Shown one piece after another: positions 75 through 28,326 of a stretch of DNA of 64,000 bases. This DNA is from Escherichia coli (GTDB taxonomy: Bacteria > Pseudomonadota > Gammaproteobacteria > Enterobacterales > Enterobacteriaceae), in NCBI RefSeq assembly GCF_024502345.1, contig NZ_JALDNN010000001.1. One strand, given 5' to 3'. The position numbers and the translations under genes are program-made. Below the pieces are notes generated by a model. That model did no database searches. It was not told where the DNA came from and was given only the letters and a program-made list of their open reading frames with translations. Position 1 is the stretch's first letter. Each line of letters opens with the position of its first letter.

Positions 75-1270
<1,196 letters not shown>

Positions 1271-1439
1271 TTAATATAAAGACACAAGCAGAGACATTTT
1301 TGGCACGATATAAAAACGCTAAGTTAAAAAATCACTATGACGTGTTGGGTATCAAATGTTCACTGGCATAAACCTCTGTTTCTGATGTAAAACAGATTTT
1401 CTGAGGAGGCGTAAAACCTCCTCGTACTGCGAAATTGAT

Positions 1440-1940
1440 TTAGTGATAGCGATCGATCACGCCAACCAGATAGTGGTCGGTTTGCTGCATGTTGATGCCC
1501 GCTTTTTTAGCGCTGCGGACTTCATCCAGAATGATTTGCAACAGCGTCCCGTCCACGATTTCCTCTTTTCTGTATCGCTTCAGGAAGTTAATCGCTGACT
1601 TATCGTTTGCTGCCTGGGCGTCTTCCGTCAAAGAGGTCAGCGCATTAATGCGCTTCTGGTAATCGCTTACCGTCTGCTCAAACAGATCTTCCAGCGTGGA
1701 AAATTCACCGCACCGGGCGTGTTGCTCCTGTAACACCGGCGTGGCGCCGCTCTGTTTGATGTATTCGTACATGCGCATCATTTGCGTCACCGTATTTTGC
1801 GCCTGATGACGCAAAAATAGTGCGGTGCCATTAAGGCTATTCTCGCTGCACCTCTGGCTGAGCTGAAGATACAAATTTGAGGTATAAAACTCCTGATTCA
1901 TTTGCGCATTCAGTTTTTGAACTATTCCGCTAGCGATCAT
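1440..1940 (-). CDS. ferritin-like protein (bacterial non-heme ferritin family, FtnB-like), 166 aa
   Basis: 166-aa ORF with ferritin-like sequence pattern (N-terminal NQEFYTSNLYLQ, C-terminal LLQIILDEVRSAKKAG); isolated between the IS5-like element and IS26. Confidence 0.7.
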   Translation of the reverse strand: MIASGIVQKLNAQMNQEFYTSNLYLQLSQRCSENSLNGTALFLRHQAQNTVTQMMRMYEYIKQSGATPVLQEQHARCGEFSTLEDLFEQTVSDYQKRINALTSLTEDAQAANDKSAINFLKRYRKEEIVDGTLLQIILDEVRSAKKAGINMQQTDHYLVGVIDRYH

Positions 1941-2358
1941 AGGACTTCCTTATTTCTTGTCATCTCAGAAAACGGTCACTCTTCGAAAAAATAACCAGAA
2001 TAAAAGCGATTCTTTCGCTTTTTTTATTGCGCCTGGTTACGCAGTCATATTCATTTTAAGTCGGGATGCTCCTTATTTAAATATCCAACCCTACTATCGC
2101 ATTTCTATCTGGCATTATTCTGTGATGGTGTTTCGATATTCACACTCCCTGTGCCAATCCTTTCTTATCGACAGTAGGAAACTTCCTCCGGCTATTCTGC
2201 TGAACACGATTAGGGGCACTGTTGCAAAGTTAGCGATGAGGCAGCGTTTTGTCTTATTCAAAGGCCTTACATTTCAAAAACTCTGCTTACCAGGCGCATT
2301 TCGGGTGATGCTGCCAACTTACTGATTTAGTGTATGATGGTGTTTTTGAGGTGCTCCA

Positions 2359-2634
2359 GTGGCTTCTGTTTCTATCAGCTGTCCCTCCTGTTCAGCTACT
2401 GACGGGGTGGTGCGTAACGGCAAAAGCACCGCCGGACATCAGCGCTATCTCTGCTCTCACTGCCGTAAAACATGGCAACTGCAGTTCACTTACACCGCTT
2501 CTCAACCCGGTACGCACCAGAAAATCATTGATATGGCCATGAATGGCGTTGGATGCCGGGCAACCGCCCGCATTATGGGCGTTGGCCTCAACACGATTTT
2601 CCGCCATTTAAAAAACTCAGGCCGCAGTCGGTAA
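2359..2634 (+). CDS. insA: IS1 InsA (91 aa)
   Basis: Protein [43 protein letters not shown] matches IS1 InsA with its zinc-finger-like Cys pattern. Confidence 0.95.
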
Positions 2635-3056
2635 CCTCGCGCATACAGCCGGGCAGTGACGTCATCGTCTGCGCGGAAATGGACGAACAGTGGGGATACG
2701 TCGGGGCTAAATCGCGCCAGCGCTGGCTGTTTTACGCGTATGACAGGCTCCGGAAGACGGTTGTTGCGCACGTATTCGGTGAACGCACTATGGCGACGCT
2801 GGGGCGTCTTATGAGCCTGCTGTCACCCTTTGACGTGGTGATATGGATGACGGATGGCTGGCCGCTGTATGAATCCCGCCTGAAGGGAAAGCTGCACGTA
2901 ATCAGCAAGCGATATACGCAGCGAATTGAGCGGCATAACCTGAATCTGAGGCAGCACCTGGCACGGCTGGGACGGAAGTCGCTGTCGTTCTCAAAATCGG
3001 TGGAGCTGCATGACAAAGTCATCGGGCATTATCTGAACATAAAACACTATCAATAA
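2553..3056 (+). CDS. insB: IS1 InsB reading frame (InsAB' transposase produced by -1 frameshift)
   Basis: ORF overlapping the insA 3' end in the -1 frame; slippery motif AAAAAAC at 2610-2616; protein matches IS1 InsB. Confidence 0.93.
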
Positions 3057-3066
3057 GTTGGAGTCA

Positions 3067-3765
3067 TTACCGCATTTCGCCCAGGGGATCACCATAATAA
3101 AATGCTGAGGCCTGGCCTTTGCGTAGTGCACACATCACCTCAATACCTTTGATGGTAGCGTAAGCCGTCTTCATGGATTTAAATCCCAGCGTGGCGCCGA
3201 TTATCCGTTTCAGTTTGCCATAATCGCATTCAATCACGTTGTTCCGGTACTTAATCTGTCGGTGTTCAACGTCAGACGGGCACCGGCCTTCGCGTTTGAG
3301 CAGAGCAAGCGCGCGACCATAGGCGGGCGCTTTATCCGTGTTGATGAATCGCGGGATCTGCCACTTCTTCACGTTGTTGAGGATTTTACCCAGAAACCGG
3401 TATGCAGCTTTGCTGTTACGACGGGAGGAGAGATAAAAATCGACAGTGCGGCCCCGGCTGTCGACGGCCCGGTACAGATACGCCCAGCGGCCATTGACCT
3501 TCACGTAGGTTTCATCCATGTGCCACGGGCAAAGATCGGAAGGGTTACGCCAGTACCAGCGCAGCCGTTTTTCCATTTCAGGCGCATAACGCTGAACCCA
3601 GCGGTAAATCGTGGAGTGATCGACATTCACTCCGCGTTCAGCCAGCATCTCCTGCAGCTCACGGTAACTGATGCCGTATTTGCAGTACCAGCGTACGGCC
3701 CACAGAATGATGTCACGCTGAAAATGCCGGCCTTTGAATGGGTTCATGTGCAGCTCCATCAGCAA
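3067..3765 (-). pseudogene. tnpA: IS26 transposase (Tnp26) disrupted by IS1
   Basis: Protein MNPFKGRHFQRDIILWAVRWYCKYGISYRELQ matches IS26 Tnp; likely start codon at 3745-3747. The frame runs into the IS1 end and stops at 3067-3069; the native C-terminal codons (LVSRVFEM) lie on the other side of IS1 at about 2267-2302. Confidence 0.88.
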
Positions 3766-3810
3766 AAGGGGATGATAAGTTTATCACCACCGACTATTTG
3801 CAACAGTGCC

Positions 3811-4053
3811 GAGCAGATTGTCTTTGCCCTGAAGCAGGCTGAGCTGGGTACGCCCGTACCGGAAGTCTGCCGCAAGCTGGGCATCTCCGATGCCACGTTC
3901 TACACCTGGCGCAAAAAGTACGGCGGGATTTCTCCTTCAGAGCTGAAACATATGCGGCAGCTCGAAGAGGAAAACCTTCGCCTGAAGAAGCTGGTTGCCG
4001 ACCTGAGTCTCGACAAGGCCATGCTGCAGGACGTGCTGGCAAAAAAGAGCTGA
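3811..4053 (+). pseudogene. IS3-family orfA fragment (HTH / leucine-zipper part), N-terminus removed by IS26
   Basis: Frame is open from the IS26 boundary: AEQIVFALKQAELGTPVPEVCRKLGISDATFYTWRKKYGG...LAKKS, stop at 4051-4053. The ORF-track entry 3262-4053 is an artefact that reads back across IS26. Confidence 0.75.
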
Positions 4054-23177: not shown

Positions 23178-25361
23178 CTAAGCGCGTTTGATTTCAACCA
23201 GGTTGGTATGTTGCGGGTTCCCTTTCGCCAGCGGCGACGGCAGGTGGCTGGTCAATGTGTTAATACATCCACCCACGTCCACACCGTTGCTGTCCAGTCG
23301 GGTCCACGCGCCTTGCGGCATTGCCACCACGCCCGGCAGGATGCGCTGTGTCACCTTGCAGGGGATCTCCACCACACCGCGATCGTTGAATACATGGACC
23401 ATATCGCCTGATTTCAACTGACGCACGCTGGCGTCTATCGGGTTGATCCAGACTTCATCCGGTACCGCTTCATGCAGCATCAGCACACTGGCATATGTTG
23501 AGTGCGTGTGACCTTTGGTGTGAAAACCGCTCATCTGTAGCGGATACTTTGCTGTCAGACTCTTGTTCAGATGGGACTCTGTCACTATACAAAATTCAGG
23601 AACAGCCGGAATGCGATCTCCTTCCGGTAGTGTCCAGGCTTTAGCCAGTTCCGCCAGAGTGTGCGAGTAAATCTCAATCTTCCCGGAAGGTGTCGTCAGT
23701 GGACTGGCAACCGGATCATGGCGGAAATCAGCAAGGATAATACTGTCCTCATCACGAGTACCTTGCTGATCGATAACCCCCATATTCATTGCAACTTCCC
23801 ATTCAGGCAGATATGATCGCTTCTCTTTAACTTGTCCGTAATGCTTCGCCATCCACTCTGCCTGAGTACGCCCCTCAGTAAAACGCTCTCTTACCCCAAG
23901 ATGCCCCGCAATATCTGCACAGATATCATAGGTACTGCGTACTTCCCACATCGGTGTGATCGTTTTTTGCATTGCAATCATGTAATGGTGAGAACCGGCT
24001 GCATAGGAACTGTCCACCAGATCCTCGGCTTCTAAGTAGCTAGTTTCTGGAAGAAGGATATCGGCAAAGCGGGCACTGGCAGTCATATGATTATCAATAA
24101 CCACGATAGTTTCGCACAGGCTGTCATCTTCAAGTATTTTGCGTGTACGATTGATATTTCCATGTTGATTCAGAAGTGCATTCCCGGCCTGGTTGAAGAA
24201 CAGTTTAATACCGGTTTTCAGTTTATCCGCGCCTTTAACCCCCATAGTGGTGGCTGTCATTTTTTCCGGACTTTGAATCGCATCTGTCCACAGATAGCAG
24301 GGGATTGACACCTTAACGGGATTTTCACCAATCGGCAGAGCAGGAACACCATAAGGTGTTCCGTATGTCCAGTTCCCATTGTTGGTTCCTGGCAATCCAA
24401 AATGACCCGTCAGGGCAGGAAGTATCTGAACCGCTCTGGAAGTCTGTTCACCATTTGCATGACGCTGTGGCCCCCATCCCTGGGCAATGAAACAGGCCCG
24501 AGCTTCGGCCATTTCACGTGCCAACTGGCGAATACGAATAGCCGGGATGCCACAGATATCTGCCGCCCATTCAGGTGTTTTTTCGACGCCGTCATCACCG
24601 TTACCCAGAACATAGTCTTTATAACTGGCATTTGGTTTCGCCGTTTCCGGAAGGGTGCTACGATCATAACCGACACAATAAGTATTGACTCGTTCTTCGT
24701 CGATCAGATTTTCTTTTATCAACGTGTGTGCAATAGCTGCTACCAGTGCAGCATCGGTTGTAGGGCGAATTGGTAACCATTCAGCATGTTCTGTAACAAC
24801 AGAGTCTGTATAGCGCGGATCGATGATAATCACCCGGGCGCCTGATATTTCCAGCGCACGGCGCAGTTCTTCAACTTGCCCACCACCGGACATCCGAGTC
24901 TCAGATAAATTCAGACCAAAAAAAACCACAAGATCAGAATGCGCAATCTGGCTAAAATGACTGGCAAACTGTACTCCTGTAGCACCATACGTGTAAGATG
25001 TGGCGGTAAAGTTTTGAGCGTTTGAGTAATTATTGTAATACTGCAGAAAACCGCCATTCAGGTTCAATAACCTTTTCCATGCGGGTGTTCCTTGGTTATG
25101 ATAATACGCGCCAGATTGATAATTAAAATAGATTGCTTCATTTCCATATTTTTCAGAAACGCGCTTTAATTCAGCGGCAATAAAGGCTGTGGCCTCATCC
25201 CATGAAATACGTTTAAATTTCCCTTCTCCGCGTTTACCAACACGTTTCATCGGATATTTAATCCGGTCAGGGCTGTAAACTCGCCAGCGGCTGGAACGAC
25301 CTCGCAGACAGGGACGGATTTGGTGTTCACCGAATACCGAATCATCCTTAGCATCTTCCGG
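23178..25361 (-). pseudogene. DmsA-like molybdopterin oxidoreductase catalytic subunit, 5'-truncated by IS903 copy 2
   Basis: Frame stays open to the IS903 boundary (PEDAKDDSVFGEHQIRPCLRGRSSRWRVYSPDRIKYPMKRVG) and matches DmsA from about residue 85; the Tat signal and N-terminal Cys-cluster region are missing. Confidence 0.88.
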
Positions 25362-26418
25362 GGCTTTGTTGAATAAATCGAACTTTTGCTGAGTTGAAGG
25401 ATCAGATCACGTATCTTCCCGACAACGCAGACCGTTCCGTGGCAAAGCAAAAGTTCAAAATCACCAACTGGCCCACCTACAATAAAGCCCTCATCAACCG
25501 TGGCTCCATAACTTTCTGGCTGGATGATGAAGCTATTCAGGCCTGGTATGAGTCAGCAACACCTTCTTCACGAGGCAGACCTCAGCGCTATTCTGACCTT
25601 GCCATCACGACTGTGCTGGTCATTAAACGCGTATTCAGGCTGACCCTGCGCGCTGCGCAGGGCTTTATTGATTCCATTTTTTCTCTGATGAACGTTCCGC
25701 TACGCTGCCCGGATTACAGCTGTGTCAGCAGGCGGGCAAAGTCGGTTAATGTCAGTTTCAAAACGCCCACCCGGGGTGAAATCGCACACCTGGTAATTGA
25801 TTCCACCGGGCTGAAGGTCTTCGGTGAAGGCGAGTGGAAAGTCAAAAAGCATGGCCAGGAACGCCGCCGTATCTGGCGTAAGCTGCATCTCGCCGTTGAC
25901 AGTAAAACACATGAAATCATCTGCGCTGACCTGTCGCTGAACAACGTTACGGACTCAGAGGCCTTCCCCGGGTTAATCCGGCAAACCCACCGGAAAATCA
26001 GGTCAGCCGCCGCCGATGGCGCTTACGATACCCGGCTATGTCACGATGAACTGCGGCGTAAGAAAATCAGCGCGCTTATCCCTCCCCGAAAAGGTGCGGG
26101 TTACTGGCCCGGTGAATATGCAGACCGTAACCGTGCAGTGGCTAATCAGCGAATGACCGGGAGTAATGCGCGGTGGAAATGGACAACAGATTACAACCGT
26201 CGCTCGATAGCGGAAACGGCGATGTACCGGGTAAAACAGCTGTTCGGGGGTTCACTGACACTGCGTGACTACGATGGTCAGGTTGCAGAGGCTATGGCCC
26301 TGGTACGAGCGCTGAACAAAATGACGAAAGCAGGTATGCCTGAAAGCGTGCGTATTGCCTGAAAACACAACCCGCTACGGGGGAGACTTACCCGAAATCT
26401 GATTTATTCAACAAAGCC
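25362..26418 (+). mobile_element. IS903-like element, copy 2 (1057 bp), without target duplication
   Basis: IRs GGCTTTGTTGAATAAATCG at 25362- and inverted ending 26418; flanks ATCTTCCGG and CCGGTTGAA are not a direct repeat. Confidence 0.93.
25394..26362 (+). CDS. IS903 transposase (intact; likely 307 aa from the GTG at 25439)
   Basis: Matches IS903/IS102-type transposase as recalled (KQKFKITNWPTYNKALINRGS...MPESVRIA); the ORF track extends it upstream to a TTG. Confidence 0.92.
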   Translation: MKDQITYLPDNADRSVAKQKFKITNWPTYNKALINRGSITFWLDDEAIQAWYESATPSSRGRPQRYSDLAITTVLVIKRVFRLTLRAAQGFIDSIFSLMNVPLRCPDYSCVSRRAKSVNVSFKTPTRGEIAHLVIDSTGLKVFGEGEWKVKKHGQERRRIWRKLHLAVDSKTHEIICADLSLNNVTDSEAFPGLIRQTHRKIRSAAADGAYDTRLCHDELRRKKISALIPPRKGAGYWPGEYADRNRAVANQRMTGSNARWKWTTDYNRRSIAETAMYRVKQLFGGSLTLRDYDGQVAEAMALVRALNKMTKAGMPESVRIA

Positions 26419-28326
26419 CCGGTTGAATTTGGTCGCTTCAATGGCGGGGTAATTGATGCAAAGATCAAACGCTTCAACGCTGATGATAGCAAGGTGAAAT
26501 TGGGTTATCGCACTACGCGTTCGGACTGGTTAACATCGCATATCGATGAGAATAACAAGAGCGCATTTAATCAAGGCTCTTCAGGAAGTACTTATTACTC
26601 CCCAGATTTTAAAAAGAACTTTTATACCTTGTCGTTTAATCAGGAACTCGCTGATAACTTCGGCGTTACCGCCGTTTTATCGCGCCGCCAGTCTGATATC
26701 ACCCGCGCGGATTATGTTTCGAATGACGGCATTGTCGCCGGTCGGGCACAGTATAAAAACGTTATCGATACTGCATTGAGCAAATTTACCTGGTTTGCCA
26801 GCGACCGCTTTACCCACGATTTAACCTTAAAATATACCGGCTCCAGCCGTGATTATAATACCAGCACCTTCCCGCAGTCTGATCGCGAAATGGGTAATAA
26901 ATCCTACGGTCTGGCATGGGATATGGATACGCAGCTCGCATGGGCCAAACTGCGTACCACCGTTGGTTGGGATCATATTAGTGATTATACCCGTCACGAT
27001 CATGACATCTGGTACACCGAACTTTCATGTACATATGGTGATATTACAGGGCGTTGCACCCGTGGCGGATTAGGACACATTTCCCAGGCTGTAGATAATT
27101 ACACCTTCAAAACACGCCTGGACTGGCAAAAATTCGCCGTGGGTAATGTTTCGCATCAACCCTACTTCGGCGCGGAATACATCTATTCTGATGCGTGGAC
27201 TGAACGCCATAACCAGTCTGAATCCTATGTGATTAATGCTGCCGGAAAGAAAACTAACCATACCATTTACCATAAAGGTAAAGGCAGCCAGGGAATTGAC
27301 AACTACACGCTGTATATGGCGGATCGCATTAGCTGGCGTAATGTGTCATTAATGCCCGGCGTGCGGTATGACTATGACAACTATCTGTCAAACCACAATA
27401 TCTCCCCGCGCTTTATGACGGAATGGGATATTTTTGCTGATCAAACCTCAATGATTACAGCAGGTTATAACCGTTACTATGGCGGGAATATTCTTGATAT
27501 GGGATTACGTGATATCCGCAATAGCTGGACGGAATCGGTATCAGGCAATAAAACCCTGACGCGTTATCAGGATTTGAAAACGCCTTATAACGATGAACTG
27601 GCAATGGGATTGCAGCAGAAAATCGGTAAGAACGTTATTGCGCGCGCAAACTATGTTTACCGTGAAGCGCATGATCAAATCAGCAAAAGCAGTCGTACCG
27701 ACAGCGCGACTAAAACCACCATTACTGAATATAACAACGACGGCAAAACAAAAACGCATTCGTTCAACCTCAGTTTTGAACTGGCCGAACCCCTGCATAT
27801 CAGCCAGGTAGATATTAACCCGCAAATTGTCTTTAGCTATATCAAGAGCAAGGGCAACTTGTCGTTAAACAATGGTTATGAGGAGAGCAATACCGGTGAT
27901 AACCAGGTGGTTTATAACGGCAATCTGGTTTCTTACGATAGCGTTCCAGTGGCGGATTTTAATAACCCATTAAAGATCTCCTTAAACATGGATTTCACGC
28001 ATCAACCGAGCGGGTTGGTGTGGGCGAATACGCTGGCCTGGCAAGAAGCGCGTAAAGCTCGCATTATCCTGGGTAAGACGAATGCGCAATACATCAGCGA
28101 ATATTCAGATTACAAGCAGTATGTTGACGAAAAACTGGATAGCAGCCTGACCTGGGACACCCGCTTGTCCTGGACGCCACAATTTCTGAAACAACAAAAC
28201 CTGACGATCAGTGCCGATATTCTCAATGTACTGGATAGCAAAACCGCGGTTGATACAACGAATACCGGTGTGGCGACCTACGCCAGTGGCCGTACTTTCT
28301 GGCTTGATGTCAGCATGAAATTTTAA
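26419..28326 (+). pseudogene. yddB: TonB-dependent outer-membrane receptor YddB, 5'-truncated (C-terminal ~635 codons)
   Basis: Frame is open from the IS903 boundary with no start or signal peptide; C-terminal beta-barrel ending in F; position upstream of pqqL as in K-12. Confidence 0.85.

Follow-up and report, generated by a model that had tools for sequence, protein, structure and literature searches.

The DNA analysed here is a stretch of 64,000 nucleotides from Escherichia coli (hereafter the window; contig NZ_JALDNN010000001.1 of assembly GCF_024502345.1). Near its beginning lies the coding sequence of an FtnB-type non-heme ferritin-like protein on the minus strand (1440-1940), which the ORF list gives as a complete reading frame from ATG to stop codon; its product of 166 amino acids (L001) is WP_001752509.1, without a single amino acid difference. 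The gene is part of a 944-bp segment (1271-2214, minus strand), consisting of 169 bp of downstream DNA, the coding sequence and 274 bp of upstream DNA, which appears to be the remnant of a foreign chromosomal ftnB locus. An earlier note, made from the letters of the DNA, had described a ferritin ORF standing alone between an IS5-like element and IS26; the gene is indeed the sole one in the 944 bp that separate the two insertion sequences.

The downstream boundary of the segment is formed by ISKpn26 (75-1270, plus strand, 1196 bp), whose transposase ORF (143-1123, plus strand, 326 aa) matches the NCBIfam IS5 family model with 367 bits. The terminal repeats, GGAAGGTGCGAACAAG and CTTATTCGCACCTTCC, are 16 bp long and agree in 15 of 16 positions; the equivalent IS5-family element is named ISKpn26 in the annotation of homologous plasmids. 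The 4-mers beside the element, TTAG (71-74) and TTAA (1271-1274), do not constitute a matching 4-bp target duplication. As read from the sequence, this implies a later rearrangement at ISKpn26: since the two flanks differ, the higBA side and the ftnB side would stem from different molecules. The TTAA that abuts the element is native to the downstream sequence of donor-type ftnB, and the 74 bp left of ISKpn26 are covered by matches to plasmids that carry a toxin-antitoxin pair in this place.

The upstream boundary is an IS26 copy on the minus strand (2215-3810), with its ends GGCACTGTTGCAAA at 2215 and TTTGCAACAGTGCC ending at 3810. The interval measures 1596 bp, the sum of 820, 768 and 8 bp, because IS26 is split by an IS1 of 768 bp (2294-3061, plus strand) that is flanked by the 8-bp duplication gcatttcg (2286-2293 and 3062-3069). 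This interruption had been overlooked in the earlier note. The IS26 transposase is recognized by an IS6 family model (269 bits); tnp26 is deprived of its last ~8 codons by the IS1 insertion, which may have disabled this copy of IS26. In the window, IS26 delimits the segment on one side and ISKpn26 on the other; in pCFR-9161, copies of IS26 are present on both sides of the segment, and ISKpn26 comes after the second of them.

Family of the protein and its ferroxidase positions

The Pfam Ferritin family (PF00210) matches residues 8-141 of the ORF protein (E=4.6e-22; 78.9 bits, cutoff 24.5). Among the more specific models, the NCBIfam FtnB equivalog NF011597 is passed with 209.9 bits (cutoff 154; E=2e-62), the match spanning residues 1-163 of the 167-position model, whereas the FtnA model NF007638 remains below its cutoff (97.8 versus 178 bits). 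The protein shares 51% of its amino acids with E. coli FtnB and 32% with FtnA; the range across the FtnB proteins of E. coli, Salmonella and Citrobacter is 51-54%. A dN/dS ratio of ~0.08 against the nearest relatives shows that the ORF evolves as a coding sequence. By these measures the ORF is a real and intact FtnB-type gene, predicted to encode a four-helix-bundle ferritin-like protein, and its earlier characterization as FtnB-like, but diverged, holds. E. coli and Salmonella FtnB (YecI; NF011597/PRK15022) have the same ferritin-like domain and 167 residues, compared to 166 here.

The best solved relative in the PDB is E. coli FtnA (1EUM; E=2e-23, residues 4-155), a member of the same four-helix-bundle family, and this shared ferritin fold could suggest a protein with a functional di-iron ferroxidase centre, either a bacterioferritin or a classical FtnA-type iron-storage ferritin. 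Such an assignment is highly improbable: besides the FtnA model score below the cutoff, the 57 PDB matches with E <=1e-3 all bear the name of a ferritin or ferritin chimera, never that of a bacterioferritin, and a Bfr-specific match is absent for the ORF protein in Pfam and NCBIfam. The residues of the ferroxidase site itself, for which we take the FtnA numbering and the site assignments of 1EUM to apply, point in the same direction. In the alignment to FtnA, the residues E17, Y24 and E126 are kept, which is the one further point in favour of an FtnA-like protein, whereas the ligands E50, H53 and E94 are replaced by T, Q and Y, respectively. Q127 is changed to E and E130 to D, so that of the di-iron set E17, E50, H53, E94, Q127 and E130 only E17 is left, and the site C residues E49 and E129 are N and V here.

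Loss of these ligands is not peculiar to the ORF. In 100 full-length members of the FtnB family, the columns corresponding to E49, E50, H53 and E94 are occupied by S/N/G, N/S/T, Q/H/L and Y/H/N, respectively, and E. coli and Salmonella FtnB show the same replacement of E50, H53 and E94. Because the whole family has lost the same ligands, the missing canonical di-iron site is best read as the norm of the FtnB family and not as decay of the mobile copy. Velayudhan et al. (2007) reportedly proposed FtnB as a facile Fe2+ reservoir, since it is without a ferroxidase domain. The earlier note had called the gene an iron-storage paralogue, leaving the integrity of its ferroxidase site to an alignment: the extra paralogue stands, as a copy of FtnB type, but the canonical ferroxidase centre is missing (E50T, H53Q, E94Y, as in every FtnB), so that the term cannot denote a classical, ferroxidase-driven ferritin.

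Two other positions set the mobile allele apart from its family. It has Arg at residue 30 (codon at 1851-1853, minus strand) and Tyr at residue 58 (1767-1769, minus strand), where 94 of 100 full-length relatives have Trp and Phe, as does FtnA; in these residues it also departs from E. coli and Salmonella FtnB. Within this set, Arg30 and Tyr58 are confined to variants of the mobile allele. Folding or assembly of the protein could suffer from the two exchanges.

Host chromosome, relatives and origin of the segment

The right end of IS26 cuts the orfA of an IS3-family element (3811-4053). In another E. coli chromosome (NZ_LR536431.1) this IS3 element is uncut, and the interval 3811-25000 of the window is found there as an island at 99% identity; hence, the DNA that carries the ferritin gene would have joined a pre-existing island via IS26. 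The island, from 3811 to ~25000, holds IS110-family elements, a Tn3-family unit with genes for an MBL-fold hydrolase, a GlxA regulator and an ester cyclase, and genes for Lrp, an amino-acid transporter and MalY as well as a DMSO/selenate reductase operon. A dmsA/ynfE-family reductase gene on the minus strand (in the window interval 23178-26419) is without approximately its first 110 codons, and it is followed by an IS903-like element of the IS5 family (~25363-26419), after which the E. coli core begins on the pqqL/yddB side. From ~26,419 onwards, the window is E. coli chromosome at 97.7-98.7% identity (pqqL, yddB, dosP and gadBC region).

E. coli has its own ftnB, which is matched in 5,410 of 5,426 complete E. 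coli genomes, and a gene displaced from its native position by IS activity would be core sequence rather than cargo. The segment has the family assignment in common with such a displaced gene and nothing else. Near-identity to native ftnB, which the earlier note had named as the outcome that would speak for displacement, was looked for: the proteins are 51% identical, and at the DNA level native E. coli ftnB aligns to the 944-bp segment at ~70% over just 160 bp. Furthermore, the flanking chromosome is that of E. coli, and the segment is identical to plasmid copies from 9 genera. A displaced core gene was rejected on these grounds, and its probability is practically nil. An E. coli chromosome whose own ftnB has so little in common with the segment indicates that the ferritin gene is imported cargo, additional to the ftnB of the host. 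The extra, horizontally delivered copy that had been suspected is likewise borne out by the occurrence of the 944 bp, at >=99% identity, in 298 plasmids.

For the donor, 100,044 species-representative genomes, one per species, were scanned, which gave just four relatives with 72-79% amino acid identity to the mobile protein: Atlantibacter sp. RC6 (79%), 'C. freundii' M-21 (75%; NCBI names this protein Atlantibacter sp.), A. subterranea (73%) and A. hermannii (72%). The closest full-length homologue, with 84% identity, was found in a large protein database among Logan assemblies (P0004); the next gene after it, as in Atlantibacter, belongs to the DcuA/DcuB family. These chromosomal genes share with the mobile copy the length of 166 residues and the C-terminal motif of the protein, and their loci have a homologous upstream block, Shine-Dalgarno sequence, terminator hairpin and downstream spacer. 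Both non-coding flanks of the mobile gene align to the Atlantibacter and Logan ftnB loci up to the IS boundaries, TTAA included. Unlike the mobile copy, the Atlantibacter-type ftnB genes reside on chromosomes, with araFGH on one side and a DcuA/DcuB-family transporter gene on the other.

In Atlantibacter sp. RC6 (L005), ftnB is divergent from araF and araG, the same position as that of ftnB in E. coli; AraF and AraG of this genome are 95% and 87% identical, respectively, to those of E. coli K-12 (L004). This araFG-adjacent place marks the Atlantibacter-type genes as true ftnB orthologues. None of these neighbours remains with the mobile copy, which is placed between insertion sequences and not, like E. 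coli ftnB, beside araFGH; its orthology is judged from the relative RC6 and from the homologous flanks. FtnB evolves much faster than AraF and AraG, Atlantibacter-type FtnB being ~51% identical to E. coli FtnB, a figure measured on the mobile allele.

Against its relatives, the mobile allele has a dN/dS ratio of 0.07-0.13, which does not differ from that among the chromosomal genes (near 0.1 within the Atlantibacter clade), at a dS of ~1 or higher. Such values indicate that the divergence accumulated under purifying selection in a distinct species and not after the capture. With dS ~1 or higher to the mobile allele, none of the Atlantibacter and Logan copies is the donor. In 10 genomic contexts of WP_001752509.1 that were inspected, additional donor DNA was never retained, and the 80-95% identity range was empty among plasmids in a more sensitive search. 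The capture itself appears to have been a single event: a 944-bp ftnB slice, comprising the coding sequence with its terminator hairpin as well as the 274 bp on the upstream side, would have been taken up once from an enterobacterial relative of Atlantibacter that is as yet unsampled.

Non-coding features and expression

The hairpin that had been noticed downstream of the ORF is a GC-rich structure (GAGGAGG...CCTCCTC; 1403-1423, minus strand) with an 8-bp stem, 17 nt past the stop codon. Directly after it, a second stem-loop, TCTGTTTT...AAAACAGA (1375-1396, minus strand), is predicted, which is partly conserved in the relatives. A 68-nt fold over both stem-loops, at -20.8 kcal/mol (z=-5.15), is more stable than any of 200 shuffles; the stem of the first hairpin is kept in five relatives. 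This hairpin was not called by a strict terminator scan and has a weak U-tract; it is likely a transcription terminator.

On the other side of the gene, the Shine-Dalgarno region AAGGAAG (1945-1951, minus strand) contains the sole GGA motif near the start codon and is invariant in the relatives. E. coli ftnB likewise has a GGA-containing Shine-Dalgarno sequence, which is a binding site of CsrA, a protein that represses translation at GGA motifs (PMC6686035). By analogy, CsrA might also act on the GGA in the Shine-Dalgarno sequence of the mobile copy.

Further upstream, 50-100 nt 5' of the ATG, a nested palindrome is followed by a T-run (1990-2040, minus strand; z=-3.5). The palindrome, whose sequence is not kept in the relatives, is terminator-like on both strands; on that of the gene, it resembles a terminator or an attenuator and could attenuate or block read-through from IS26. 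The only base by which the segment differs from the common plasmid allele and pCFR-9161, position 1992, is located in the outer stem of this palindrome, where it turns a G-U pair into an A-U pair. About -150 to -200 from the ATG lies a block, AATATCGAAACACCATCACAGAATA...AATGCGATAGT (2089-2140, minus strand), with columns that are invariant in all Atlantibacter-type ftnB loci. The block, a candidate regulatory site, matches none of the consensus sequences of Fur, FNR and CRP.

As had been suggested in the earlier note, a Fur box was searched for in 1941-2214: the best match to the 19-bp consensus is 11/19, a score that 84% of shuffles reach, in a scan that is insensitive, as its positive control, the upstream region of ftnA, did not exceed chance either. 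The mobile copy resembles Salmonella ftnB in this respect, which has no recognizable Fur motif and is subject to direct control by Fnr and to indirect control via H-NS; the literature is at odds over whether Fur controls ftnB (PMC3212961). A perfect FNR box lies at -270 in E. coli ftnB and is missing in the mobile copy; FNR boxes of 8/10 or better were found neither in the mobile copy nor in the relatives, except for two marginal matches. The search for CRP sites gave one half-match (8/10), judged to be due to chance. IS26 truncates the locus 274 bp 5' of the ATG, and given the position of the FNR box in E. coli, distal regulatory DNA may have been lost through this cut.

A sigma-70 scan yielded two weak sites, no commoner than in shuffles, one of which overlaps the start codon. 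The sole match able to serve the gene is weak (9/12) and has the terminator-like palindrome between itself and the ATG. Since the promoter match is weak and no commoner than in shuffles, expression of the mobile copy is unproven. A hybrid promoter at the IS26 end was rejected as well: judged by eye, TTGCAA of the terminal repeat is without an acceptable -10 element 16-18 nt downstream. An Rfam scan of 1100-2400 gave no match at E values up to 1.

These observations bear on whether the gene is a dead or impaired remnant, from which no working protein is made owing to W30R and the loss of distal promoter elements. Such a state would agree with the confinement of Arg30 and Tyr58 to variants of the mobile allele among 100 relatives (position 30 being Trp also in FtnA), with the IS26 cut at -274 and with a promoter search that gave nothing convincing. 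However, the reading frame is complete, the Shine-Dalgarno sequence is strong, the conserved upstream block is kept and dN/dS is as low as among chromosomal genes; W30R may even have arisen, and been tolerated, in the donor lineage. On balance, a dead or impaired gene is considered unlikely.

Spread, function and significance of the module

Plasmids carry the 944-bp segment at >=99% identity in 298 records from 9 genera, most of all Citrobacter (126) and Klebsiella (104), but also Enterobacter, Escherichia, Raoultella and others. The exact protein WP_001752509.1 occurs in 9,349 blocks of public assemblies, more than 100 of them with megabase contigs. In all ten contexts that were read, the order is IS26, ferritin gene and ISKpn26, usually followed by an HTH/Gp49 pair of HigA/HigB type. 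In the literature, the accession WP_001752509 was found nowhere, and the module is mentioned in one paper alone, that on pSIM-1-BJ01, which notes a higA, higB module with a ferritin gene (PMC6657655). The segment, the protein WP_001752509.1 and the flanking insertion sequences of the window are those of this higBA/ISKpn26/ferritin/IS26 module, as present in pSIM-1-BJ01 and in IncF, IncHI, IncP and other plasmids. Unlike in the plasmids, the module is joined here to an island of the E. coli chromosome, it has an IS26 that is interrupted by IS1 and borders on the truncated IS3-family element, and one base differs (1992). The gene is a near-clonal passenger of a widespread IS26/ISKpn26/higBA module, which is already known and not peculiar to this genome.

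The entire set of observations is accounted for best, with a probability of roughly 0.85, by a mobile copy of a chromosomal ftnB that encodes an FtnB-like protein, is a passenger in the IS26/ISKpn26/higBA module and has spread by hitch-hiking. The captured slice would travel between IS26 and ISKpn26 as their only passenger, beside a higBA-type toxin-antitoxin pair. IS26-mediated rearrangements would be the most likely means by which the module as a whole moves among the plasmids and chromosomes found in Enterobacterales; in the present strain it sits in an IS-rich island of the E. coli chromosome, in addition to the ftnB of the host.

If the gene is expressed, its product may be expected, by analogy to its family, to be an FtnB-like shell protein holding easily released iron for Fe-S cluster repair or stress rather than a fast ferroxidase store. 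FtnB is a contributor to the iron content of E. coli cells (PMC6686035). Salmonella ftnB mutants are attenuated in mice according to a passage of PMC8264917 that cites Velayudhan 2007, and the title of the latter study, as cited there, names a role of ferritin B in Fe-S cluster repair.

Persistence of the gene might then be due to selection for it, as accessory cargo that would, for instance, add to Fe-S repair or buffer iron in hosts under oxidative, nitrosative or iron stress. Most copies by far have an intact ORF, and several independently trimmed versions of the segment (143-944, 168-944, 170-860 and 1-730) all keep it (170-670 in segment coordinates); the conserved upstream block and the terminator are also retained, and the attenuation of Salmonella ftnB mutants, as referred to in the passage of PMC8264917, would be in line with a benefit. 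However, the copies represent one near-clonal allele (>=99% identity), so that intactness reflects recency and not selection, and truncated ORFs do occur (H134 and H135; proteins P0015, P0018 and P0019). In addition, no phenotype is reported in the literature, and most enterobacterial hosts would have a chromosomal ftnB anyway, as 5,410 of the 5,426 complete E. coli genomes do. Selection for the cargo is thus a rather improbable cause of its persistence; hitch-hiking on resistance plasmids with IS26, ISKpn26 and higBA explains the spread best, rather than any demonstrated selection for the gene. Still less likely is a specifically adaptive accessory gene, in which Arg30 would alter assembly or iron release, mobilizable iron or Fe-S repair would help the hosts of multidrug-resistance plasmids in hospital, wastewater and host niches, and the block at -150 to -200 would be the site of an unnamed regulator.

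With a module already annotated in hundreds of enterobacterial plasmids, the presence of an extra FtnB-type gene at this locus is a correct, but ordinary finding. The gene is useful as a marker of the higBA/ISKpn26/ftnB/IS26 module, by which plasmid-derived mosaics can be traced into chromosomes. If it were expressed and beneficial, it would represent a rare function in iron homeostasis or Fe-S repair riding on resistance plasmids.
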